From positions 549-64,548 of the forward strand of contig JBDTEQ010000069.1 of the NCBI GenBank assembly GCA_039922475.1: 64,000 bases of DNA, in the 5' to 3' direction. The stretch's first letter is position 1. The number at the start of each line of letters is the position of its first letter. The notes beneath the pieces were generated by a model that ran no database searches, was not told the DNA's origin, and worked only from the letters and a program-made list of their open reading frames with translations. Of this stretch, positions 11,773 to 60,150 are shown one piece after another. This stretch comes from Edaphobacter sp. Its GTDB lineage: Bacteria; Acidobacteriota; Terriglobia; Terriglobales; Acidobacteriaceae. Both the position numbers and the translations under genes were made by a program.

Positions 11773-11776
<4 letters not shown>
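11075..11776 (+). CDS. secreted hypothetical protein embedded in the leu operon
   Basis: 233 aa with a GTG start. Signal peptide [20 protein letters not shown]. Its stop overlaps the leuC ATG (ATGA). No family recognised. Confidence 0.6.
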
Positions 11777-13281
<1,505 letters not shown>

Positions 13282-13292
13282 CCCTTAAACCC

Positions 13293-13342
13293 TGTCATCC
13301 TTCGCGCAGCGGAGGATCTGCTTCTCGCACTTGCACTTCGTC
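13293..13342 (+). repeat. family-A repeat (short form), leuC-leuD spacer
   Basis: tgtcatccttcgcgcagcggaggatctgcttctcgcacttgcacttcgtc. Hairpin ATCCTTCGC-gca-GCGGAGGAT. 39/40 identical to the copy inside ilvB. Confidence 0.9.
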
Positions 13343-13389
13343 TTTACCAACAACTAACAACAAGCAACTGTTCCGAAGGAACAAACTAT

Positions 13390-14025
13390 ATGCACCCGAT
13401 CAACATCATCGCCAGCCACGCAGTCCCGCTCGACCGCCCCAACGTCGACACCGACCAGATCATCCCCAAGCAGTTCCTCAAGCGCATCGAGCGCACCGGC
13501 TACGGCGACTTCCTCTTCTACGACTGGCGCCGCATCCAGGAAGGCCCCAAAGCCGGCCAGCCCGACGAAACCTTCGTCCTCAACAAGCACCATCACAAGG
13601 GCGCAAAGATCCTCATCGCTGGAAAGAACTTCGGCTGTGGCAGTTCCCGCGAGCACGCCGCCTGGGCACTCACCGACTTCGGCTTCCTCGCCGTCATCGC
13701 CCCCAGCTTCGCCGACATCTTCTTCTCCAACGCCGGGAAAAACGGCATGATCCTCGTCCGATTACCCGAACCCGACGTTCAAACGCTGATGCAGCGCTCA
13801 GAGAAAAACCCAGCACACAAGATCACTATCAACCTCGAAGCCCAGACCATCACCGACGACGAAGGCTTCACCGGAAAATTCGAAATCGACCCGTTCCGCA
13901 AATACTGCCTCCTGAACGGCCTCGACGACATCGGCCTGACTCTCCGCCATGAAGCCGAGCTAGACAAATACGAATCGAAACATGACGCCGAATTCTGGTT
14001 AAAGCCCCGCGCCATTGCTTCTTAG
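13390..14025 (+). CDS. leuD: 3-isopropylmalate dehydratase small subunit
   Basis: 211 aa. Motifs VDTDQIIPKQFL and NFGCGSSREHA. Confidence 0.95.
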   Translation: MHPINIIASHAVPLDRPNVDTDQIIPKQFLKRIERTGYGDFLFYDWRRIQEGPKAGQPDETFVLNKHHHKGAKILIAGKNFGCGSSREHAAWALTDFGFLAVIAPSFADIFFSNAGKNGMILVRLPEPDVQTLMQRSEKNPAHKITINLEAQTITDDEGFTGKFEIDPFRKYCLLNGLDDIGLTLRHEAELDKYESKHDAEFWLKPRAIAS

Positions 14026-14040
14026 CAATCGCTTTCTAGT

Positions 14041-14111
14041 TGTCATCCTTCGCGTAGCGGAGGATCTGCTTCTCGCTTTTGCAATTTGTTGTTTCTCGTT
14101 TTGCGTTTTGC
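14041..14111 (+). repeat. family-A repeat (short form) with a long T/G-rich tail, leuD-ilvD spacer
   Basis: tgtcatccttcgcgtagcggaggatctgcttctcgcttttgcaatttgttgtttctcgttttgcgttttgc. Confidence 0.9.
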
Positions 14112-14185
14112 TTAAGCACGCGGCTTCAACCGTGTGAATCAGCTACCAATACAACGGGGCTTTAGCCCCTGAGGGAATCTCACAA

Positions 14186-15883
14186 GTGAGTAACGAAATC
14201 AATCCGAAGAAATACTCGATCCCCCTGACCGAAGGCCCCAACCGCGCCGCCGCCCGCTCCTATCTGCGCGGCGTAGGCTTCACCAAAGAGGACCTGCACA
14301 AGCCCATCATCGGCGTAGCCAACACCTGGACCGAGATCGGCCCCTGCAACTTCCATCTTCGCGACGTCGCCGCCGCCGTCAAACAAGGCATCCGCGACGC
14401 CGGCGGCACGCCGATGGAGTTCAACACCATCACCATCTCCGACGGCATCACCATGGGAACCGAAGGCATGAAGGCCTCGCTCATCTCCCGCGAAGTCATC
14501 GCCGACTCCATCGAACTCGTCGCCCGCGGCAACCTCTTCGACGGCATCGTCTGCATCGCCGGCTGCGACAAGAACATGCCCGGCACCATCATGGCGATGG
14601 CGCGCCTCGACATCCCCGGCATTATGCTCTACGGCGGCAGCATCGCCCCCGGCCATCTCAAACAGCCCGACGGCAGCAGCAAAGACATCACCATCCTCAA
14701 CGTCTTCGAAGGCATGGGCGCGCACTCGGCTGGCAAGATCAGCGACGCCGAGCTCGAAGCCCTCGAAGCCGCAGCCTGTCCCGGCCCCGGAGCCTGCGGC
14801 GGCCAGTTCACCGCCAACACCATGGCCATGGCCGGCGAGTTCCTCGGCATCTCGCCCTTCAACCTCACCGGCGTCCCCGCCATGGACCCGCACAAAGCCT
14901 CCGCCTCGCGCGAAGCTGGCCGCATGATCATGGACCTCTGCCGCCGCGACGTTCGCCCCAGCAAGATCGTCACGCGCCAGGCGATCGACAACGCCATCGC
15001 CGCCGTCTGTGCATCGGGCGGCAGCACCAACGCTGTCCTGCATCTCATCGCCATCGCCAGCGAGTTCGGCATTCCACTTTCGATGGACGACTTCGACCGC
15101 ATCTCCGAGCGCACGCCCTTCATCTGCGACCTCTCACCCGGCGGCAAGTACGTCGCGAAAGATTATCAAGATGCAGGCGGCAGCCGTGTCCTCGCCAAAC
15201 GCCTCCTCGACGCTGGCCTGCTCAAAGGCGACAGCATCACCGTCTCCGGCAAGACCCTCGCCGAAGAGGCAGCCATCGCAAAAGAAACACCCAACCAGCC
15301 AGTAATCCGCACACTCGAGAACCCGCTCAAGCCCACCGGCGGCCTCGTCATCATGCATGGCAACCTCGCCCCCGACGGCGCAGTCATCAAAGTCGCCGGC
15401 CACGAGCGCATCTTTCATCAGGGGATCGCTCGGGTGTTTGAATCCGAGGAAGACTGCCACGCCGCCGTCGAAGCTGGAAAGATCAACCCCAACGACGTCC
15501 TCGTCATTCGCTACGAAGGCCCACGCGGCGGCCCAGGCATGCGCGAGATGCTCGCCGTCACCGCCGCCATCAAAGGAATACCCGCGCTCTCGGAAACGGT
15601 AGCCCTCCTCACCGACGGGCGTTTCTCCGGTGCAACGCGTGGGTTAATGGCCGGCCACGTCGCCCCCGAAGCTCAACTCGGCGGCCCCATCGCCGCTGTC
15701 CACGAAGGCGACACCATCACCTTCGACATCCCCAACCGCAAACTAACCCTCAACGTCCCCGAAGCCGAAATCGCCAAACGCCTGGCAGCATGGAAGGCTC
15801 CTGAACCCCGCTTCAAACGCGGCGTCTTCGCGAAGTACGCCAACTCTGTCAGCAGCGCTAGCGAAGGAGCAGTTACCACATAG
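14186..15883 (+). CDS. ilvD: dihydroxy-acid dehydratase
   Basis: 565 aa with a GTG start. Motifs CDKNMPG, SDGITMGTEGM and TDGRFSGAT. Confidence 0.95.
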   Translation: MSNEINPKKYSIPLTEGPNRAAARSYLRGVGFTKEDLHKPIIGVANTWTEIGPCNFHLRDVAAAVKQGIRDAGGTPMEFNTITISDGITMGTEGMKASLISREVIADSIELVARGNLFDGIVCIAGCDKNMPGTIMAMARLDIPGIMLYGGSIAPGHLKQPDGSSKDITILNVFEGMGAHSAGKISDAELEALEAAACPGPGACGGQFTANTMAMAGEFLGISPFNLTGVPAMDPHKASASREAGRMIMDLCRRDVRPSKIVTRQAIDNAIAAVCASGGSTNAVLHLIAIASEFGIPLSMDDFDRISERTPFICDLSPGGKYVAKDYQDAGGSRVLAKRLLDAGLLKGDSITVSGKTLAEEAAIAKETPNQPVIRTLENPLKPTGGLVIMHGNLAPDGAVIKVAGHERIFHQGIARVFESEEDCHAAVEAGKINPNDVLVIRYEGPRGGPGMREMLAVTAAIKGIPALSETVALLTDGRFSGATRGLMAGHVAPEAQLGGPIAAVHEGDTITFDIPNRKLTLNVPEAEIAKRLAAWKAPEPRFKRGVFAKYANSVSSASEGAVTT

Positions 15884-15885
15884 CA

Positions 15886-16107
15886 ATGGCTATTACTTCT
15901 CAATCCGTATTAGAAGGTTGGATTCCCGCGATCGTTGGTTTCCTGCTCGCAATCTATGGATTTTTCGGCTCGCGACTAGGAACACGCGCATTCGGAAACC
16001 CCAGCCGTCAACAATTAGAACGTATTCCAACGACCCGAGATCGCGCGATTCACATCAGCTTTGCATTGCTTATATGTCTATATGGGATTTTTAATTTAAC
16101 GAAGTAA
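15886..16107 (+). CDS. small two-helix membrane protein between ilvD and ilvB (AT-richer than its neighbours)
   Basis: 73 aa. The ATG lies 2 nt after the ilvD stop. Hydrophobic segments WIPAIVGFLLAIYGFFG and ISFALLICLYGIF. Visibly lower GC than the flanking genes. Confidence 0.45.
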   Translation: MAITSQSVLEGWIPAIVGFLLAIYGFFGSRLGTRAFGNPSRQQLERIPTTRDRAIHISFALLICLYGIFNLTK

Positions 16108-16151
16108 TTTCAATCTCGGACTTCGAGTTTCAGAATCTTGAATGAGGTTTT

Positions 16152-17951
16152 ATGCCGAAAACGCATTTGAGCGCAAACAAAGATCAACACCCCCAACTCA
16201 CCGGCTCCGAAATCCTCTGGGCCACTCTCGTCGGCGAGGGCGTAGACAAAGTCTTCGGCTACCCCGGCGGAGCCATACTCCCCGCCTACGACGCGCTGCG
16301 CAAGTTCCCCATCCACCACATCCTCGTCCGGCACGAGCAGGGTGCCGCGCACATGGCCGACGGCTACGCCCGCGCCTCCGGCAAGGTCGGTGTCTGCATC
16401 GCGACCAGCGGCCCCGGCGCCACCAACCTCGTCACCGGCATCGCTACCGCCATGCTCGACTCCATCCCTATCGTCTGCATCACCGGCCAGGTTGGCAGCA
16501 AAGTCCTCGGGAGCGACGCATTTCAAGAGATCGACATCACCGGCATCACCCTGCCCATCACCAAGCACAACTACCTCGTCACCCGCGCCGAAGATATCGC
16601 CCCCGCCATTCGCGAGGCGTTCCAGATCGCGAAGTCCGGGCGTCCAGGTCCGGTACTCGTCGACATAACAAAAGACGCGCAACAAGCTACTGCGTCATTC
16701 AACTTCGAGACCGCCGCACCCAAGCCCTACCGCCCGCACCCCATGCTGCGCGCCGAATCCTCTTCGATCCAACAGGCCATCGAGCTAATCAAAGCCGCGA
16801 AGAAACCCGTCATCCTCGCCGGCCACGGCATCACACACTCTGGAGCTGAAGCCCAGGTCCTCGCCTTCGCCGAACGCCAGCAGATTCCCGTCGCCAGCAC
16901 GTTGCTCGGTCTCGGCGGAGTCCCCACAAATCATCCGCTCTCACTCGGCATGATGGGCATGCACGGCGAGTCGTGGGTGAACAATGCAATCCAACAGGCC
17001 GACCTTCTCCTCGCCTTCGGGATGCGCTTCGACGACCGCGTCACCGGCAACCTGGCGCTCTACGCTCCCAACGCGAAGAAGATCCACATCGAGATCGACC
17101 CTTCCGAGATCAACAAGAACGTCCGCGCCGACGTAGCCCTCATCGGCGATCTCAAAGAAGTCCTCGAACTCCTCCTCCCACTGCTCGAAACTTGTCATCC
17201 TTCGCGCAGCGGAGGACCTGCTTCTCGCACTTCTCCCTGGCTCCGCGAGATCAACGTTATGAAGGGCGACGCCGCCGTCCGCGACATCATCAACCTGCCA
17301 GACAACGGCCACCTCTACGCCGCCCACGTCATCAACGACATCTGGCGCGAAGCCCACGCCGCCGGCCGCGCCGACCAGACCATCATCGTCACCGACGTAG
17401 GCCAGCACCAGATGTGGGAGGCCCAGTACTACAAGCACGACACCCCGCGCTCGCTCATCACCTCAGGCGGCCTCGGCACCATGGGCTTCGCTCTACCTGC
17501 AGCCATCGGCGCAAAGGTCGCCTGCCCGGAGAAAGATGTCTGGGTCATCGCCGGCGACGGCGGCTTTCAGATGACCGCCGCCGAACTCTCCACCATCGTG
17601 CAGGAAAACCTCGCCATCAACATCGCCGTCATCAACAACGGCTTCCTCGGCATGGTCCGCCAGTGGCAGGAGGCCTTCTACGACAAGAACTACGCCGCCT
17701 CCCCCATCCTCTCGCCCGACTTCGTCAAGCTAGCCGCAGCCCACGGCATCGACGGCGCAACCGTCAACAAGCGCCAGAGTGTAACCCCCACAGTCACAAA
17801 AGCGCGCACCAGCGGCAAACCTTTCCTCATCAACTTCCAGGTAGAAAAAGAAGACGGCGTCTACCCCATGATCGCCCCCGGCTCCGCCCTCCACGAGATG
17901 GTCCGCAGGCCACAAAAAGACCCGCTCCTCGAAACCGCGGAGGATGAGTAA
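16152..17951 (+). CDS. ilvB: acetolactate synthase large subunit, carrying an in-frame repeat insertion
   Basis: 599 aa. ThDP-enzyme motifs GYPGGAILP, GLGTMGFALPAAIGA and GDGGFQM. Extra segment [17 protein letters not shown]. Confidence 0.95.
   Translation: MPKTHLSANKDQHPQLTGSEILWATLVGEGVDKVFGYPGGAILPAYDALRKFPIHHILVRHEQGAAHMADGYARASGKVGVCIATSGPGATNLVTGIATAMLDSIPIVCITGQVGSKVLGSDAFQEIDITGITLPITKHNYLVTRAEDIAPAIREAFQIAKSGRPGPVLVDITKDAQQATASFNFETAAPKPYRPHPMLRAESSSIQQAIELIKAAKKPVILAGHGITHSGAEAQVLAFAERQQIPVASTLLGLGGVPTNHPLSLGMMGMHGESWVNNAIQQADLLLAFGMRFDDRVTGNLALYAPNAKKIHIEIDPSEINKNVRADVALIGDLKEVLELLLPLLETCHPSRSGGPASRTSPWLREINVMKGDAAVRDIINLPDNGHLYAAHVINDIWREAHAAGRADQTIIVTDVGQHQMWEAQYYKHDTPRSLITSGGLGTMGFALPAAIGAKVACPEKDVWVIAGDGGFQMTAAELSTIVQENLAINIAVINNGFLGMVRQWQEAFYDKNYAASPILSPDFVKLAAAHGIDGATVNKRQSVTPTVTKARTSGKPFLINFQVEKEDGVYPMIAPGSALHEMVRRPQKDPLLETAEDE
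17193..17233 (+). repeat. family-A repeat (short form), in frame inside ilvB
   Basis: tgtcatccttcgcgcagcggaggacctgcttctcgcacttc. It starts exactly on a codon boundary and is 39/40 identical to the intergenic copy at 13293. Confidence 0.9.
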
Positions 17952-18553
17952 TGGCACGCCCGATAGGCATCGATTGCCCAATCTTCGATAGCGCTGCCAG
18001 AAAAGTGCCAACGGCGCTACCTATACCAGCATGGGGTTTCACACCATGGTGTAAAGGCAAGCCATCAGCGCTTTCACTATCGATGAAGGCTGCTCTCGCT
18101 TTCTGCCTGCTCCTCCCATCAATCGCCATCGCCCAACCACCCCACCACCTCCGCATCCGAATCATCAACGCCCAAACCAACAAACCCATCCACGACGAGA
18201 GGCTAAACGTAGCCCTCAAAACCGATCAGATCGGCTCCGTCGCCATGGCCACCGACAAACACGGCATCATCCTCGTCGACACCGGCAACGCCACCACCAT
18301 CCGCATCCTCGCCAACATGTACGCCGACTGCCGCCCACGCGCCGAGCTCTACACCGACTACTCCATCGACACCATCCATCACTCCGGCATCACGACTGGC
18401 AACCTCTGCGGCGGCGAACAACACAGAGCCCACCCCGGCGAACTCCTACTCTACGAGATCCCCAAGACCTACATCCCAACCTATCCGCATCCACCCGTCA
18501 GCTCGATGCCGCACTCCGACGAGAACCCACACAAGCCGAACAAACCTCAGTAG
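17951..18553 (+). CDS. secreted or membrane-anchored hypothetical protein between ilvB and ilvN
   Basis: The ATG overlaps the ilvB stop (TAATG). An alternative start at 18083 gives the signal peptide MKAALAFCLLLPSIAIAQ. Possible beta-sandwich (LRIRIINAQTNKPI...). Family not recognised. Confidence 0.55.
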   Translation: MARPIGIDCPIFDSAARKVPTALPIPAWGFTPWCKGKPSALSLSMKAALAFCLLLPSIAIAQPPHHLRIRIINAQTNKPIHDERLNVALKTDQIGSVAMATDKHGIILVDTGNATTIRILANMYADCRPRAELYTDYSIDTIHHSGITTGNLCGGEQHRAHPGELLLYEIPKTYIPTYPHPPVSSMPHSDENPHKPNKPQ

Positions 18554-18555
18554 AG

Positions 18556-19179
18556 ATGGGCCGCATCCCGATTGAACTACCTGAGAACCAACTCTTGCCC
18601 CAAACACTCCAACTCGAAACCCCACGCCTCCTCCTTCGCCGCTGGCAGGAGGCCGACCGCGAACCCTTCGCCGAAATGAACGCCGACCCTGTCGTCATGC
18701 ACTTCTTCGCAGCGCCCATGACTCGTGAACAAAGCGACGAAGCCATCGACCGCTATCTCGCGGCCTTTGATCGCGAAGGCTTCAGCCTCTTCGCCGCAAC
18801 GGAGCGCGGCACCGGCGACTTGATCGGAACCATCGGACTGCAAACCATGCGCGACGCCGTCCCCAATCTCCCTCAACCCGCAGTCGAGATCGGCTGGCGT
18901 CTTGCGCAATCCGCCCAGGGCAACGGATTCGCGACCGAAGGCGCACACGCAGTCGTCAACTTCGCCTTCAACCAACTCGCACTCACCGAGGTCGTCGCAA
19001 TCACCGCACTTCCCAATCAAGCCTCGCGCCATGTGATGGAAAAACTAGGCATGACCCATCGCCCCGAACTCGACTTCAACCATCCCCGTGTCCCCGCAGG
19101 CCACCAGTATCAACGCCACACCCTCTACAGTCTGCGAAATCCAAACGTCAACGAGGTCCCATGCTCCACACCTTCGTAG
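18556..19179 (+). CDS. GNAT-family N-acetyltransferase (RimJ/RimL-like)
   Basis: 207 aa. LETPRLLLRRWQEADREPFAEMNADPVVM is a typical N-terminus. Also GNGFATEGAHAVVNFAF. Confidence 0.8.
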   Translation: MGRIPIELPENQLLPQTLQLETPRLLLRRWQEADREPFAEMNADPVVMHFFAAPMTREQSDEAIDRYLAAFDREGFSLFAATERGTGDLIGTIGLQTMRDAVPNLPQPAVEIGWRLAQSAQGNGFATEGAHAVVNFAFNQLALTEVVAITALPNQASRHVMEKLGMTHRPELDFNHPRVPAGHQYQRHTLYSLRNPNVNEVPCSTPS

Positions 19180-19799
19180 CCCACGTCCAGGACAAGCCCG
19201 GCGTCCTCACGCGAGTCGCCTCGCTCTTCCGCCGCCTCAACATCAACATCGTCTCCCTCACCGTAGGCGAGTCCGAGCGCGAAGACATCTCCCGCATGAC
19301 CATCGTCTGCGAGGCGCCCGACCACGCAGCCCACCGCATTCGTGCCTCGCTCTACAAACTCGAGATCACCGTCGATGTCGACGAGGTTGGCCGCAGCGAA
19401 GCCGTCATCCGCGAACTCTGCCTCGTCAAAGTTGCAGCCGGCCCATCACACCCACTCGGCCAGCACTCGCGTTCGCAGATCTTCGAGCTCGCCAACGTCT
19501 TCCGCGCCCGCATCGTCGACCTCGCTCCCGAATCCATCATGCTCGAGATGACCGGCAGCTCCTCCAAGATCGAAGGCCTCATCCAGGTCATCACCGAGAG
19601 CGGCTACACCATCCTCGAAGTCTCCCGTACCGGTCGCATGGCAATGCGCAGAGGACACCACACCGGTCGCGTCATGAAAGCTCTCGGCACACCCGACCCC
19701 ACCGACCCAGACGACTCCACCTTCACCAAAGACCTCGGCACAGAAGAAACTCTACCCACCGAATTCCGCCACGTTCACGGTGACGAAGAAGAAGACTAG
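19161..19799 (+). CDS. ilvN: acetolactate synthase small (regulatory) subunit with a C-terminal acidic extension
   Basis: 212 aa. ACT domain HTFVAHVQDKPGVLTRVASLFRRLNINIVSLTVG. Overlaps the GNAT gene by 19 nt. About 45 extra C-terminal residues relative to E. coli IlvH (163 aa). Confidence 0.9.
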   Translation: MLHTFVAHVQDKPGVLTRVASLFRRLNINIVSLTVGESEREDISRMTIVCEAPDHAAHRIRASLYKLEITVDVDEVGRSEAVIRELCLVKVAAGPSHPLGQHSRSQIFELANVFRARIVDLAPESIMLEMTGSSSKIEGLIQVITESGYTILEVSRTGRMAMRRGHHTGRVMKALGTPDPTDPDDSTFTKDLGTEETLPTEFRHVHGDEEED

Positions 19800-19929: not shown

Positions 19930-20955
19930 ATGGCAAAGGCATACCACGACGCAGACGCAGACCTCTCCCTCATCCAGACAAAAAAAGTCGCCATCATCGG
20001 CTACGGCTCTCAGGGCCACGCTCACGCCCTCAACCTTAAAGACTCCGGCGTTGACGTTCGCGTCGGCCTCCGCCCCGACTCCCCTAACGCCGAGCGCGCC
20101 CGCAAAGCTGGCCTCGTCGTCGACACCGTCGCCAACGTCAGCAAGTGGGCCGATGTCATCATGAACCTGACGCCCGACCAGACCGCCGCCAAGGTCTACC
20201 ACGCCGAGATCGCACCCAACATGAAGCCCAACGTCACGCTCATGTTCGCGCACGGCTTCAACATCCGCTTCCGCACCATCACGCCACCGGCGACAGTAGA
20301 TGTCTCGCTCGTCGCTCCCAAAGGTCCGGGCCACCGCGTCCGCGAGGTCTTCACCGAAGGCGGCGGCATCCCCGGCCTCGTTGCCGTCGAGCAGGACGCT
20401 AGCGGCCACGCCCTCGCTCTCGCGCTCAGCTATGCGAAGGGAATCGGCTGCACCCGCGCCGGTGTTCTCCAGACCACCTTCACCGAAGAGACCGAGACTG
20501 ACCTCTTCGGCGAGCAAGCAGTCCTCTGCGGCGGCACCAGCGCGCTCGTCAAAGCAGGATTCGAAACTCTCGTCGAAGCCGGCTACCAGCCCGAGCTCGC
20601 CTACTTCGAGGTTCTCCACGAGCTGAAACTCATCGTCGACCTGATGTATCGCGGTGGCCTCGAATACATGCGCCACTCCATCTCTGACACCGCCGAGTGG
20701 GGCGACTACGTAGCCGGACCACGCATCGTCACTGCCGAAGTAAAGAAAGCGATGAAGTCCCTGCTCAATGACATCCAGGACGGCAGTTTCGCAAAAAGAT
20801 TCATCGCCGAAAACGAGACCGGCGGCCACGAATTCGCCCGCATCCGCAAGGCCGAAGCCGCGCTGCAAATCGAAAAAGTAGGCGCTGAACTCCGCAAGTC
20901 CATGCCCTTCCTCGACCCGGTCGTCGTCAAGGACGGCCAGGTTCAAAAGGCCTGA
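19930..20955 (+). CDS. ilvC: ketol-acid reductoisomerase
   Basis: 341 aa. Motifs [18 protein letters not shown] and class-I KARI length. Confidence 0.95.
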
Positions 20956-31696: not shown

Positions 31697-31875
31697 GTAG
31701 TATCGACATATAGTTGGGTCTTAAATCTTGATTTTTTAAGGACTGTCATCCTGAGCGCAGCCTCTCGCAGCATTATCGCGAGAGGCGGAGTCGAAGGACC
31801 TGCGGTTTGCTCCTGGCGTCACTCTCGTTTTGCCCCATTCGCGGCAACACCTTGTCATCTATATGTCGATACTGC
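31697..31875. repeat. 17-nt inverted repeat pair (15/17) bracketing a family-A copy
   Basis: gtagtatcgacatatag (31697-31713) and ctatatgtcgatactgc (31859-31875). Confidence 0.6.
31744..31813 (+). repeat. family-A repeat (long form)
   Basis: tgtcatcctgagcgcagcctctcgcagcattatcgcgagaggcggagtcgaaggacctgcggtttgctcc. Internal 9-bp hairpin GCCTCTCGC/GCGAGAGGC. Confidence 0.9.
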
Positions 31876-33289: not shown

Positions 33290-35053
33290 GTGCCGTTTTC
33301 CGCCCAAAATTCTTCCAATAACGCTGTCCTGGACCCCGCCTTACCCGACCAGCCTCACGCGAAACCCAAGGTAGGCTTCGTCTCTCTCGGCTGCCCCAAA
33401 AACCTCGTAGACTCCGAGGTCATGATGGGCCTGCTCCACCACAACGGAGCCGAGCTCACCCCCAACGCCGAAGACGCCGAGATCATCGTCATCAACACCT
33501 GCAGCTTCATCGACTCCGCCAAGCAGGAGTCCGTCAACACCATCCTCGAAATGGTCCAGCTCAAGCAGCAGAACGGCGGAAAAGCCCAGCGCATCGTAGT
33601 CGCCGGCTGCCTCGTCGAGCGCTACCGCGACGAGATTCAAAAAAACATCCCCGAAGTAGATGCCGTCGTAGGCACCGGCGAACTCGAAGCCATTCTCTCC
33701 GCCGCCGGCCTCACCCCCACCGGCCACGCCAACAACTCCCCTTTCAACATCCTTCCTCGATCCACAAATTCGGGTACCCCATCTACACCGCAGTCTCATC
33801 GCGGTTTAGGTGGGCATTCGCAAAGCGAACCGCCTTCCTCCAACGAACCGCTGATCTCAAGAGCCCCCAGCGCCGTCCACCAGCACTCCCACCCCACCGA
33901 AATCGGCACTCAACTAAAAGATCAAAATAGAACTGTCATCCTGAGCGAAGGCGCAGCAGTAGTCGAAGGACCTGCGGTTATCTCTGGACAAACCAGTCGT
34001 CCCGAAGGCGACGCCCGCGAGCAATCCGGCCGCTTCTCCCGCGCCTCATGGGACGGAGCCACCGCCGCCCTCCCCGAATACCTCTACTCCGACGAAACTC
34101 CGCGCATCCTCACCACCCCGCGCGCCAGCGCCTACATCAAGATCGCCGAAGGCTGCGACCACCCCTGCAGCTTCTGCATCATCCCGCAGCTTCGTGGCAA
34201 GTTCCGCTCCCGCCGCATGTCGTCGATCATCCGCGAGGCCGAAAACCTCATCGCACAGGGCGTCCGCGAGATCACCCTCATCGGCCAGGACACCACCTGC
34301 TACGGCGAAGACCTCGGCCTCACCGAAAACGGAGAACCGGTCGGCCTCTCGCAACTTCTCGAAGCACTGGCCGTACTCCCCGGCCTCCGCTGGCTACGCT
34401 TTCTCTATACCTACCCCAACAAAGTAACCACGCGCCTCCTCGAAACAATGGCGAAGCACGACACCATCGCAAAGTACCTCGACGTTCCTCTCCAGCACGC
34501 AAGCCCCAGCGTCCTCAAACGGATGAAGCGCGGCGGCAACGCACAGATCTTCCTCGACCTCATCGCCAGGGCGCGCCGCATCGTCCCCGGCATCGTCATC
34601 CGCACCAGCTTCATCGTCGGCTTCCCCGGCGAAACCGAAGCCGACTACAAAGAACTCGAAGCCTTCATCACCGCCGCAAAGATCGACTGGCTAGGCGTCT
34701 TCACCTACTCCGACGAAGAGGGCGCCAAGGCCTTCGAACTAGCCGACGAACTCAAAATCCCCAACCGCACCATCCAGTCGCGCCGCAACAAACTGATGAA
34801 GCTGCAACAAAAGATCAGCACCAGATCCAAAGCCGCCTGGGTAGGCCGCGAGATCGACCTCCTTGTCGAAGGAGAATCCGAAGAGACCGAACTCCTCTGG
34901 CAGGGCCGCACCCCGCTCCACGCCCCCGAGATCGACGGCAAAGTCCTCATCAACGACTTCGGCCCTCACGAAACCCTGGTCCCCGGTACTTTCTACCGAG
35001 CCGAAATCACCGAATCCCACGACTACGACGTAGTAGCCCGCATCCTCGAATAG
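33290..35053 (+). CDS. rimO: ribosomal protein S12 methylthiotransferase with a ~130-aa insertion containing two repeat elements
   Basis: 587 aa with a GTG start. MTTase N-domain VGFVSLGCPKNLVDSE, radical-SAM CDHPCSFCIIP and a TRAM C-terminus. E. coli RimO is 441 aa. Confidence 0.9.
   Translation: MPFSAQNSSNNAVLDPALPDQPHAKPKVGFVSLGCPKNLVDSEVMMGLLHHNGAELTPNAEDAEIIVINTCSFIDSAKQESVNTILEMVQLKQQNGGKAQRIVVAGCLVERYRDEIQKNIPEVDAVVGTGELEAILSAAGLTPTGHANNSPFNILPRSTNSGTPSTPQSHRGLGGHSQSEPPSSNEPLISRAPSAVHQHSHPTEIGTQLKDQNRTVILSEGAAVVEGPAVISGQTSRPEGDAREQSGRFSRASWDGATAALPEYLYSDETPRILTTPRASAYIKIAEGCDHPCSFCIIPQLRGKFRSRRMSSIIREAENLIAQGVREITLIGQDTTCYGEDLGLTENGEPVGLSQLLEALAVLPGLRWLRFLYTYPNKVTTRLLETMAKHDTIAKYLDVPLQHASPSVLKRMKRGGNAQIFLDLIARARRIVPGIVIRTSFIVGFPGETEADYKELEAFITAAKIDWLGVFTYSDEEGAKAFELADELKIPNRTIQSRRNKLMKLQQKISTRSKAAWVGREIDLLVEGESEETELLWQGRTPLHAPEIDGKVLINDFGPHETLVPGTFYRAEITESHDYDVVARILE
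33772..33832 (+). repeat. family-D double-hairpin repeat, in frame inside rimO
   Basis: gggtaccccatctacaccgcagtctcatcgcggtttaggtgggcattcgcaaagcgaaccg. Same architecture as 36155 and 39561 (GGGTRCCCCAT...hairpin...GTGGGCAT + TCGYR-aaa/gaa-hairpin + CCG). Confidence 0.7.
33934..33984 (+). repeat. family-A repeat (long form), in frame inside rimO
   Basis: tgtcatcctgagcgaaggcgcagcagtagtcgaaggacctgcggttatctc, translated as (T)VILSEGAAVVEGPAVIS. Confidence 0.85.
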
Positions 35054-35159
35054 CTTCGGCACCACCAACTACTTCAAACCGCGTCATTACCCTAAAACCT
35101 CACCCCACTGTCTCCAACCGCACTACACCCTCTAACCTTTAGCCACTACTCATAAACTC

Positions 35160-35203
35160 TGTCATCCTTCGCGAAGCGGAGGACCTGCTGTCGCTCTTCA
35201 CCG
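35160..35203 (+). repeat. family-A repeat (short form)
   Basis: tgtcatccttcgcgaagcggaggacctgctgtcgctcttcaccg, downstream of rimO. Confidence 0.9.
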
Positions 35204-35215
35204 TTCCCTCTTCAT

Positions 35216-35270
35216 TGTCATCCTTCGCAAAGCGGAGGATCCGCTGCTGTCCCTTGCCGTCGTCGCCGCT
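35216..35270 (+). repeat. family-A repeat (short form)
   Basis: tgtcatccttcgcaaagcggaggatccgctgctgtcccttgccgtcgtcgccgct, tandem to the copy at 35160. Confidence 0.9.
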
Positions 35271-36139: not shown

Positions 36140-36206
36140 GCCCCAAACGGGTGCGGGTGCCCCATATCTCGATTTTGAGATGTGGGCATCGTGCGGAGCA
36201 CGACCG
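36140..36206 (+). repeat. family-D double-hairpin repeat, starting 2 nt after the yacG stop
   Basis: gccccaaacgggtgcgggtgccccatatctcgattttgagatgtgggcatcgtgcggagcacgaccg. Confidence 0.85.
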
Positions 36207-39550: not shown

Positions 39551-39612
39551 GCCACAAACCCGGGTGCCCCATATCTCGACTCTGAGATGTGGGCATCGTG
39601 CGAAGCACGACC
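39551..39612 (+). repeat. family-D double-hairpin repeat, starting 5 nt after the cinA stop
   Basis: gccacaaacccgggtgccccatatctcgactctgagatgtgggcatcgtgcgaagcacgaccg. Confidence 0.85.
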
Positions 39613-39699
39613 GCTCCCGCCCCTCTCGATATACCCGCAACTCTGAGCCAAGGCATCTTCACCGCATCGCGCCATCTTGCTAAACTCATCCAAACGATC

Positions 39700-52050: not shown

Positions 52051-52191
52051 TTAAGAGTCCCCGCTGTTGCTGTTGCAGTCGCAGTCGCAGTCGCAGTTGC
52101 AGTTGCAGTCGCAGTTGCAGTTGCAGTCGCAGTCGCAGTCGCAGTTGCAGTCGCAGTTACAGTTGCTGTTGGCTGCCCTTTTGGTTGTCAT
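52051..52191 (-). CDS. possible 46-aa Cys-rich peptide, (C-D/N)15 core, encoded on the microsatellite
   Basis: My translation: MTTKRAANSNCNCDCNCDCDCDCNCNCDCNCNCDCDCDCNSNSGDS*. The ATG lies inside a family-A repeat and the SD is weak. Below the 60-aa ORF-track cutoff. Confidence 0.2.
   Translation of the reverse strand: MTTKRAANSNCNCDCNCDCDCDCNCNCDCNCNCDCDCDCNSNSGDS
52063..52170. repeat. hexanucleotide microsatellite (GYWGTY)18, mostly GCAGTC/GCAGTT
   Basis: 108 nt of uninterrupted 6-nt periodicity. Confidence 0.95.
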
Positions 52192-56286: not shown

Positions 56287-56346
56287 TGATAAGCCGATGA
56301 ACCCTTAGGGCAGAAGATTTTCGCCGAGTATAGCACCCGCCACGAC

Positions 56347-56428
56347 CCACAACCCTTGTCGCCCTTTCCACAACCCTTGTCCTCCTTTCCACAACCCTTG
56401 TCGTACTTTCCGCAACCATTGTCATCAA
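56347..56428 (+). repeat. 21-nt tandem array (about 3.9 units) CCACAACCCTTGTCNNNCTTT fused to the 5' end of a family-A repeat
   Basis: Units at 56347, 56368 and 56389, plus a degenerate unit at 56410. Each unit carries CCCTTGTC, the same sequence that precedes ATCC at the element junction (56430-56440). Confidence 0.9.
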
Positions 56429-56432
56429 CCCT

Positions 56433-56482
56433 TGTCATCCTTCGCCGAAGGCGGAGGACCTGCTGTTGTTTTGTAGTTGTTC
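56433..56482 (+). repeat. family-A repeat (short form)
   Basis: tgtcatccttcgccgaaggcggaggacctgctgttgttttgtagttgttc. Confidence 0.9.
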
Positions 56483-58641: not shown

Positions 58642-60150
58642 ATGGTTATCGTGAATACCAGTCTCTTCGAACTCTTCAAAATCGGTATCGGCCCCTCGAG
58701 CTCCCACACCGTCGGCCCCATGCGAGCAGCGCTCCGCTTCACCCGCGAACTCGCTGCCGCAGACCTCCTCGATAAAACCGCAAAGGTCTCCGTCGACCTC
58801 TACGGCTCCCTCGCCCTCACCGGAATCGGCCACGGCACCGACCGAGCCATCCTCCTCGGTCTCCTCGGGGAAGCGCCCAACACCGTAGACCCCGCCACCG
58901 TCGAAGAAAAGATCGCCGCCATCCGCAAAACCAACTCCCTCGCCCTCGGCGGCTGCAAGACAATCCCCTTCACCGAATCCGAAGACCTGACCTTCCACCG
59001 CAACCAGATGTACCCGGATCCCGCCATCCACTCCCACCCCAACGGCATGCACTTCACCGCCTTCGATAACACCGGACGAAAGCTCGCTGACGAAATCTTC
59101 TACTCCATCGGCGGAGGCTTCATCGTCTCGGAAGCCGAGCGCACCGCCGAAGCCTCCACCAGCACCCGCAAAGTCCCCTACCCCTTCCGCAGCGCCGCCG
59201 ACCTCCTCTCCACCGCAAAGCAAAACAATCTCACCATCGCAGAACTCCTCCTCGCCAACGAGGTCGCACTTCTCAACGACCCGAAGATTGCCATCACCCG
59301 CCCCCAGCCTTCAGTAGTTGAAGGTTGTCATCCTTCGCGAAGCGGAGGACCTGCTTCTTCCTCCTCAGCCATAGCTTCATCCCCCGAGGAAAAAATCAAA
59401 GCCAGCATCCTCGCCATCTGGCGCGTCATGCAGGAGTGCACCGAACGTGGCATCGCAACCGAAGGCATCCTCCCCGGAGGCCTCAACGTTCGCCGCCGCG
59501 CCTACCGCCTCGCCGAGCGCCTCAACACCATCGGCTCCAAAGACCCACTCGCACCCATCGACTGGGTCACCGTCTACGCCATGGCCGTCAACGAAGAGAA
59601 CGCAGCAGGAGGCAGAGTCGTCACCGCGCCCACCAATGGAGCAGCCGGCGTCATCCCCGCCATCGCCAACTACTACACCCACTTCATCGAAGGGACCGAA
59701 TCGGAGAAAGAAGAAGGCATCCTCCGCTACTTCCTCACCGCCGCCGCCATCGGCATTCTCTACAAGGAAAACGCCAGCATCTCCGGGGCAGAAGTCGGCT
59801 GCCAGGGAGAAGTCGGTGTAGCCTGCAGCATGGCCGCGGGAGGATTAGTCGCCGCCCTCAACGGAACCAACGCGCAAGTTGAACACGCTGCCGAGATCGG
59901 AATGGAACACAACCTCGGCATGACCTGCGACCCCATCGGCGGCCTCGTCCAGATCCCCTGCATCGAGCGCAACGGCATGGGAGCCGTCAAAGCCATCAAC
60001 GCCTGCCGCATGGCCATGCACGAGTCCGGCGACCACAAGCTCTCCCTCGACCAGATCATCGCCACCATGTACCAGACCGGCCTCGACATGCAGTCCCGCT
60101 ACAAGGAAACCTCCCTCGCCGGCCTCGCCCTCAACATCATCGAGTGCTGA
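58642..60150 (+). CDS. sdaA: L-serine ammonia-lyase (Fe-S, single chain), carrying an in-frame repeat insertion
   Basis: 502 aa. [17 protein letters not shown]-terminus. E. coli SdaA is 454 aa. Extra segment [23 protein letters not shown]. Confidence 0.9.
59326..59364 (+). repeat. family-A repeat (short form), in frame inside sdaA
   Basis: tgtcatccttcgcgaagcggaggacctgcttcttcctcc. Same reading frame ([11 protein letters not shown]) as the ilvB copy. Confidence 0.9.

Follow-up and report, generated by a model that had tools for sequence, protein, structure and literature searches.

How does a sequence that for the most part lies between genes come to be read in frame inside a housekeeping gene, and how does the encoded enzyme bear it? 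This question is raised by ilvB, the gene for the large (catalytic) subunit of acetolactate synthase (acetohydroxyacid synthase, AHAS), in a stretch of 64,000 nucleotides from Edaphobacter sp. (contig JBDTEQ010000069.1, positions 549 to 64,548), hereafter called the window. A preliminary description of this DNA had pointed out that 41 bases within ilvB nearly repeat an element in the leuC-leuD spacer. Our analysis indicates that these 41 bases are very probably one copy of an interspersed, hairpin-bearing repeat family of about 35 nt that is specific to Acidobacteriaceae, and that ilvB most likely carries its copy as a tolerated passenger.

The repeat copy inside ilvB

The copy occupies positions 17192..17232 (+), of which 17192-17225 form the core conserved in the family. 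It lies within an intact gene (16152..17951, +) whose open reading frame (ORF) of 599 aa has no internal stop, and it is read in frame, giving the peptide already written out in the preliminary description. The near-identity reported there was reproduced: 17193-17232 (+) and 13293-13332 (+) share 39 of 40 bases, the single difference being C/T at position 25, and over the 41 nt of the ilvB copy the figure is 39/41, with the last base differing too. A search of the window for the 40-mer with up to three mismatches gave 3 matches, compared with 0.00 in 100 dinucleotide-preserving shuffles. The hairpin of the ilvB copy spans 17198-17216 (stem TCCTTCGC/GCGGAGGA, loop GCA), and its tail at 17226-17232 is common to the copy at 13293.

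Pfam recognizes TPP_enzyme_N, M and C in the protein and the insert lies between TPP_enzyme_M (residues 206-340) and TPP_enzyme_C (415-561). Compared with four relatives, at synonymous divergence (dS) of 0.35-0.42, the ratio of nonsynonymous to synonymous divergence (dN/dS) is 0.055-0.104: ilvB is under purifying selection. Since this ratio is low and all three TPP domains are intact, the gene should still be functional. The IlvB homologs assign the window to the Edaphobacter/Tunturiibacter/Granulicella group.

A family of short hairpin-bearing repeats

The consensus core of the family comprises about 35 nt, TTGTCATCCTTCGCG-N-AGCGGAGGAyCTGCTTyT. In 134 copies taken with their flanks, positions -1 to about +33 alone have a high information content, and just 5' of the core there is a weak preference for T-rich sequence and for TAG/TAA. 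A stem of 8-9 bp (ATCCTTCGC/GCGGAGGAT), one of whose pairs is T.G, forms the centre of the core, and a GNA triloop (GAA, GCA or GTA) caps it. GNA triloops of the d(GCGAAGC) type form unusually stable DNA mini-hairpins. Pairing is kept in related variants, as in ATTCCC/GGGAAT, by an extra C:G pair (for example in the copy at 56432) and by double changes from G:C to A:T and from C:G to T:A; the CCTGAGCG...CGAAGG subfamily carries tandem G.A/A.G in the stem. Among 22 distinct 28-nt variants three stem pairs are changed on both sides, a number equalled in 4 of 500 shuffles, and 82.8% of the cells are paired, as against 27-49% with slid partners. Stop codons are absent from five of the six frames of the element, and one antisense frame has one.

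A profile built from six exact-core copies and run over the window with nhmmer found seven copies, all on the + strand, starting at 13292, 14040, 17192, 35159, 35215, 56432 and 59325. The chance expectation is zero, against six exact-core and seven nhmmer copies. Three more copies, also all on the + strand, belong to a long-hairpin subfamily and start at 12561, 31743 and 33933.

The family matches nothing in the collections that were consulted. At the gathering threshold of Rfam 15 the signal recognition particle RNA was the only match in the whole window, E-value scans of five copies against Rfam 15 returned only chance-level matches to eukaryotic families, a viral contig scan gave nothing matching the element, and literature searches for the element sequence and for Acidobacteria repeats did not bring up the family. 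The tetranucleotides GTAG and CGTC are absent from both ends of the consensus TTGTCATCC...GGAyCTGCTTyT. The element does not look like an intrinsic terminator: its stem is followed by CTGCTTyT with no T run, and a terminator consensus scan of 13000-18000 left the element hairpin uncalled and called one alternative weak stem, at 14056. A CRISPR-like array of direct tandems was rejected as well, as most copies are dispersed singletons, the spacers vary in length between 10 and 121 nt, and some copies are intragenic.

Distribution and gene context of the copies

One genome per species was scanned for the exact pattern, which retrieved at least 116 stretches. These are labelled Acidobacteriaceae, Terriglobales or Acidobacteriota with the exception of two metagenome-assembled genomes (MAGs). 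The sources include Granulicella rosea, G. aggregans, Granulicella sp. L46, Tunturiibacter empetritectus and many MAGs of Edaphobacter, Acidobacteriaceae and Terriglobales. The two exceptional MAGs are labelled Rhodanobacteraceae and bear the repeat on contigs L101, L122, L131, L144, L167, L174 and L182. These contigs show 74-84% identity and partial synteny with Acidobacteriaceae loci, and judging from the sequences the two MAGs are probably mis-binned.

Genes at the 116 loci were called with a codon-usage gene finder trained on the window. The exact-core copies are intergenic in 113/139 cases and intragenic in 26/139 (19%). Where the neighbouring genes are unidirectional, 49 copies are sense and 19 antisense (z about 3.6); 20 copies lie between convergent gene pairs and 8 between divergent ones. 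Measured from the upstream stop codon the copies lie at a median of 65 nt, most of them 10-150 nt downstream of genes, and those between genes probably serve as hairpins at the 3' ends of transcripts. Neighbouring copies no more than 300 nt apart form 26 pairs among 176 copies, and all 26 pairs are direct, none inverted (0/26).

Pfam confirms as hosts DNA polymerase X (PolX), UvrC, an S4/FtsJ (FtsJ/TlyA-like) methyltransferase, TrmD, pyrimidine nucleoside phosphorylase, class II ribonucleotide reductase (RNR) and L-serine dehydratase (SdaA), and also RecG, MutS (two copies) and anthranilate synthase I (TrpE), the copies in these last three being antisense; apart from SdaA this makes nine host genes beyond those of the window. 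The TrpE copy lies on the chromosome of an isolate, Tunturiibacter empetritectus M8UP27, and copies are also present in the isolate Granulicella rosea DSM 18704. In the window itself four genes have in-frame copies: ilvB, leuC, a rimO-like gene and sdaA, with LeuC and the RimO-like protein confirmed by Pfam. Eight of the ten verified sense intragenic copies are read in the Cys-His-Pro-Ser/Glu-Arg-Ser (CHP) frame and two in the Val-Ile-Leu (VIL) frame, an excess of the CHP frame (p about 0.003 if all three frames were used equally).

Probable insertion into permissive loops

The segment had been proposed to differ from ancient shared coding sequence, and the comparison of homologs agrees with this. 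When the 120 IlvB homologs nearest in sequence (at least 84% identity) are compared, the linker at this place measures 5-9 residues in 81 of them, typically LLPLLP-KKSDTS-W, and all of the more distant Terriglobia loci likewise have the short linker. In the metagenome locus scan with IlvB the matches listed were mostly relatives of 70-88%, and close relatives were added individually. Solved AHAS structures have unrelated sequence there: Arabidopsis NRAEELKLDFGVW (1ybh) aligns with the region, and the alignment to E. coli IlvB (6lpi) breaks at the insert position. Nothing like the segment was found conserved in AHAS from organisms without the repeat family.

The remaining 39 homologs have longer sequence at exactly the same point, and it is of at least five unrelated types. 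The element itself is found there in the window only. Variants of the same superfamily are CHPERSAQRGVEGPAF, LLSSRSEAKGSASRTS and CHSERSEEPPHF, unrelated repeat-derived inserts are VPHPSQSHREGWD, GAPGPDSGTWD and SFRPKAAGRSGETRFS, and a conserved insert of 42 residues, DYTLDRDKGT... (DYTLDRDKGTITFGDGVDGKRPPSGN...GGGAAGN), is present in 14/120 homologs (P0012, P0014, P0015, P0018, P0020 and others). The DNA of this last insert (L021 698-880) is not repeated in any locus examined.

At the DNA level, the loci L081 and L082 (94% and 92% protein identity) have an empty site, CCG AAA AAC TCC GAC ACC AGC TGG; a repeat stands in place of this stretch in the window, in L083 and in L084, the last two carrying other variants. 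Presence and absence therefore vary among relatives at the ilvB site as well as among the intergenic copies. Taken together, these sequence comparisons support the view that the ilvB segment is a copy of a dispersed repeat and not ancestral AHAS sequence.

Two other genes show the same pattern. In leuC an in-frame insert of 78 nt at about 12544-12621 is missing from the LeuC of L082 and L084. The corresponding loop of SdaA, compared in 121 sequences, is short in 48, has CHPSRSGG-type inserts in 16-17, VPHPSQSHREGWD-type inserts in about 30 and LVKGTASAVPQ-type inserts in about 21, some of them nested or tandem, and the sdaA element is common to at least 15 relatives. Peptides such as LVKGTASAVPQ may derive from repetitive extragenic palindrome (REP)-like hairpin repeats. 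The SdaA and IlvB loops are hotspots for several unrelated repeat families, with at least four unrelated types of repeat-derived insert in SdaA. In a neighbour-joining tree of the 120 IlvB proteins without the linker the insert states are intermingled with empty alleles; at 90-95% identity its branches are too short for counting gains and losses.

We envisage that the short linker at the surface of the AHAS catalytic subunit, next after the central domain, took up a copy that either landed there or was copied in. This copy could survive there by being stop-free in five of six frames, and because the frame in use encodes a flexible, hydrophilic Ser/Gly/Pro-rich peptide that the linker would tolerate, so that the enzyme would have stayed functional with the insert. 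Permissive loops would gather several unrelated repeat families while selection removed insertions elsewhere; that few sites of an enzyme tolerate insertions most simply explains why different families turn up repeatedly in the same loops. As for the copying route, a hairpin-recognizing mechanism acting on single-stranded DNA, or recombination or gene conversion between copies, appears most likely.

A search with two Y1_Tnp proteins by tblastn found homologues only beside ilvB, at six loci, and with other repeats flanking them. These RAYT-like genes (RAYT, REP-associated tyrosine transposase), of 148-150 aa, lie at L004 11858-12307, L006 5483-5926, L013 9283-9732, L015 2910-3359, L081 3726-4172 and L083 6080-6532. 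The repeats that flank them are other hairpin families (GGGCTGAAGGCCC, CCTAGGCCGAAGGCCTAGG); REP-like families stand on both sides of Y1_Tnp at L081 3640-3730 and 4170-4560 and at L083 5850-6085 and 6530-6980.

Age of the ilvB copy and rival explanations

The near-identity of the two copies had been read as a sign of recent spread. This was not established, for the core is invariant across genera and the site is filled in relatives at dS of about 0.4. A core of 24 nt is the same in copies from different genera and therefore cannot serve as a clock, the timing information being confined to the 17-nt tail. Against 137 other sampled copies the ilvB copy typically has 7-9 mismatches in 41, and a copy in an unrelated MAG (L163) has 2 mismatches to it, equal to the leuC-leuD copy. 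The window, L083 and L084 have a common 3' junction, CTGCTTCTCGCACyTC...TGG, but their hairpins are of different subfamilies, which suggests that the ilvB site was occupied earlier and that replacement or conversion followed.

Several observations weigh against the reading of the ilvB segment as a copy of a hairpin-bearing repeat that inserted and has been merely tolerated. In the filled ilvB alleles the repeat stands in place of the ancestral 18 nt and does not simply interrupt them, and neither a target-site duplication nor a clean junction is readable there; at the leuC and sdaA junctions no duplication is visible. The exact IlvB allele of the window has a single member, on this contig only, and the nearest relatives compared stand at dS of 0.35-0.42, none of them at strain level. 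Y1_Tnp is absent from the window and from the 116 repeat-bearing loci (whole genomes were not searched). A single copy folds at -12.5 kcal/mol, and z is -1.5 when it is folded as RNA and -1.4 as DNA; as these values are not significant, the evidence for structure comes from the comparison of variants. Modelling had been suggested as a means of finding the host linker. The IlvB model (35-sequence alignment) reached a mean predicted local distance difference test score (pLDDT) of 49.9, too poor for judging surface exposure or for a search by fold, and only its helix-coil-helix pattern around residues 334-370 was used; the placement between TPP_enzyme_M and TPP_enzyme_C follows from PDB and Pfam alignments. 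Finally, copies are conserved beyond what a passive insert would lead one to expect. In five orthologous filled alleles of sdaA 2 of 11 third-codon positions of the core vary, against 50.5% gene-wide (p about 0.03), and in the orthologous copy 3' of leuD the window and L083 are unlike at about 3/45 nt, in the adjoining spacer at about a third of the positions. Such conservation of the core is unexpected for a purely neutral passenger; something keeps the core constant, and this could be selection on the hairpin or homogenization among copies.

These last data bear on two other explanations. One would argue that a repeat was already in the ilvB linker when the lineage of the window parted from those of L083 and L084, that the likeness of the copies is due to concerted evolution, and that the match to the leuC-leuD copy 3.9 kb away reflects gene conversion or replacement by another copy and not a fresh insertion. 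We give this explanation a substantial chance, though one short of even. The 3' junction shared in spite of different hairpin subfamilies, and the dS of about 0.4 between the three lineages, fit it, but no conversion tract was demonstrated, and the IlvB tree is too poorly resolved for ordering the events. The constancy of the core in the sdaA orthologs (2/11 third positions against 50.5%) and in the copy downstream of leuD (about 3/45 nt, against about a third in the flanking spacer) is expected under homogenization, and selection on the hairpin could equally account for it. Moreover, wholly unrelated families at one site need independent insertions anyway.

If selection is the cause, the hairpin could have been co-opted: in the mRNAs of ilvB, leuC and sdaA, or in single-stranded DNA, it could be bound or processed by a factor of the host (operon mRNA processing or stability and translational pausing are examples), or the loop itself could be useful, and selection would keep the copy. 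The sense bias (49 against 19) points in this direction, yet about 30% of the copies are antisense, including those in MutS, RecG and TrpE. Owing to the T.G pair of the stem the sense strand folds better (-12.5 kcal/mol, against -11.1 for the antisense strand), as would suit a transcribed hairpin, but neither an Rfam family nor a terminator-like signature was found. The core is kept beyond the neutral expectation in sdaA orthologs and in orthologous intergenic copies, although with five sequences the sdaA test (p about 0.03) carries little weight. Most close relatives have no IlvB insert and others have unrelated sequence, hence nothing is required at the site, and we consider co-option improbable. 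It is still far less probable that a metagenome assembler joined reads through the repeat and so produced the in-frame copy. Repeats are classic sites of misassembly and the exact allele is known from a single contig and a single member; however, the frame is preserved, both flanks line up collinearly with the ilvB genes of four relatives, analogous in-frame copies exist in independent assemblies and in isolates (TrpE of M8UP27; copies in G. rosea DSM 18704), and the sdaA copy recurs in at least 15 independently assembled homologs. Thus insertion of a dispersed repeat into a tolerant linker, with the copy carried as a passenger, is the explanation that we prefer.

Comparison with known repeat systems

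Rickettsia palindromic elements (RPE) are about 100-150 bp long and, as far as they are summarized in later accounts (Ogata et al., 2000, via PMC10969869 and PMC3733652), occur in Rickettsia only. By the same accounts both systems consist of dispersed palindromic repeats that are found between genes and in frame within many unrelated housekeeping genes, the host genes being intact and the peptides apparently lying in tolerant parts of the proteins. The differences, seen against those summaries, are that Rickettsia is an obligate intracellular organism with a reduced genome whereas the present element belongs to free-living soil Acidobacteriaceae, that the element has only about 35 nt, and that here several unrelated families strike the same loops; it is by size and host, and not by a comparison of consensus sequences, that we set the element apart from RPE.

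The element also resembles the REPs. It is an imperfect palindrome within the 20-40 nt of that class and has many copies (7 in the 64-kb window; at least 116 stretches). The GTAG- and CGTC-tagged REPs are partly intragenic, many of them in replication and repair genes such as uvr, rec and polymerases (Di Nocera et al., 2013, PMC3733652). Like our element they are hairpins of 20-40 nt that mostly lie downstream of coding regions where the neighbouring genes are unidirectional or convergent (PMC3733652), stem G.T pairs suggest transcription in both, and in both repair and replication genes are over-represented among the hosts (here UvrC, RecG, MutS, PolX and RNR). The element differs in having no GTAG/CGTC ends, no inverted pairs (0/26) and, at the loci compared, no tyrosine transposase gene flanked by it. 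REPINs move as inverted REP doublets (Bertels and Rainey, 2011, PMC3116915). With the REPIN-RAYT system the element has in common short hairpins, high copy number and vertical persistence within a bacterial lineage, and single-copy Y1 (RAYT-like) genes do occur in related genomes, beside ilvB; however, its copies are singletons or direct tandems and those Y1 genes are flanked by other repeats. The lack of a tag, of inverted doublets and of a flanked RAYT is the reason for placing the element outside the REP/RAYT families.

The enterobacterial RU-1 and ERIC (enterobacterial repetitive intergenic consensus) elements are likewise intergenic repeats with open frames that are sometimes intragenic and add peptides (Delihas, 2007, PMC2759123), but they are 100-170 bp long, have terminal inverted repeats and resemble MITEs (miniature transposable elements with inverted repeats), whereas the element described here is a single hairpin of 35 nt. 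MITEs proper (about 70-300 bp or more) were rejected as a class: the flanks of the hairpin are uninformative, there are no terminal inverted repeats and the junctions show no duplications. By analogy with these systems, the element would represent a new family whose behaviour matches that of RPE and of intragenic REPs.

Other copies, repeats and genes of the window

The gene names used in the preliminary description agree with Pfam: 11773-13281 belongs to the Aconitase family (LeuC) and 13390-14025 to Aconitase_C (LeuD), which places the copy at 13293 in the leuC-leuD spacer as described. They are followed by IlvD (14186-15883) and, beyond ilvB, by the AHAS small subunit (19161-19799) and ketol-acid reductoisomerase (KARI; 19930-20955).

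The spacer copy, which shares 39/40 bases with that of ilvB, extends over 13292..13333 (+). The intergenic copy 15 nt 3' of leuD (14040..14086, +) is the one with an orthologous copy in L083, and the in-frame leuC copy (12561..12612, +), of the long-hairpin subfamily, is part of the 78-nt insert. In the window and in L082 the leuC-leuD spacer is filled by repeats only and is without the ORF of 122-123 aa, with no Pfam match, that stands between the two genes at L081 142-513, L083 282-650 and L084 1446-1817. In L082 this spacer (1724-1815) is occupied by other REP-like hairpins, of the GGGGCTTTAGCCCC, GGGCTGAAGGCCC and CCTAGGCCGAAGGCCTAGG families, and in the window a REP-like hairpin of this group of families lies at 14156-14169.

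Further along, an intergenic long-hairpin copy (31743..31808, +) has an inner 8-bp stem CCTCTCGC/GCGAGAGG, and another copy of this subfamily (33933..33979, +) is read in the VIL frame (TVILSEGAAVVEGPAV) within the RimO/MiaB-like gene at 33290-35053. In the RimO/MiaB-like methylthiotransferase encoded there, UPF0004 and Radical_SAM are separated by an expanded linker of low complexity, about 155 residues long, which holds this copy. Two direct tandem copies (35159-35205 and 35215-35260, +) lie 3' of the same gene. A diverged copy in a divergent intergenic region (56432..56468, +) has the extra stem pair, CCTTCGCC GAA GGCGGAGG; directly 5' of it, at 56340-56430, stand three and a half 21-nt tandem units (CCACAACCCTTGTCnnCCTTT) that resemble the 5' end of the element (CCTTGTCATCC), as though this end had been reiterated. 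The copy in sdaA (L-serine dehydratase, 58642-60150) covers 59325..59368 (+) and is read in the same frame as that of ilvB.

Two other repeats were observed in the window. A 53-nt repeat of 94% identity at 36154-36206 and 39561-39613 (CGGGTGCCCCATATCTCGA...TGAGATGTGGGCATCG) contains an inverted repeat and belongs to a different family, and a tandem array of about 20 units of the hexamer GCAGTY occupies 52051-52182.

Implications

What makes these findings of interest is mainly how often copies are in frame in this lineage, together with the IlvB and SdaA hotspots that several families share. In-frame insertion of repeats into essential genes has hitherto been known mainly from Rickettsia and a few REP-rich bacteria; it is apparently common in abundant free-living soil bacteria, with four genes in this one 64-kb window and about one fifth of the copies intragenic. 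For annotators and phylogeneticists there is a warning in this, as length variation of housekeeping proteins in Acidobacteriaceae is often repeat-derived. The copies also offer tractable data on where proteins tolerate new loops and on the reading frames that survive, as well as a test of nucleotide-level constraint on repeat hairpins inside coding sequence.

A bolder idea, which we offer as speculation and think rather unlikely, is that sense-strand hairpins of several families form a system throughout the lineage and are actively kept at the nucleotide level even in essential genes, with a few surface loops serving as safe harbours. If this were true, the hairpins would be maintained by selection or concerted evolution, and the same loops would be reused in IlvB, SdaA, LeuC and repair proteins. 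The Acidobacteriaceae would then be a free-living, large-genome counterpart of the RPE phenomenon of Rickettsia, and their genomes would hold a natural experiment in the origin of new protein loops.

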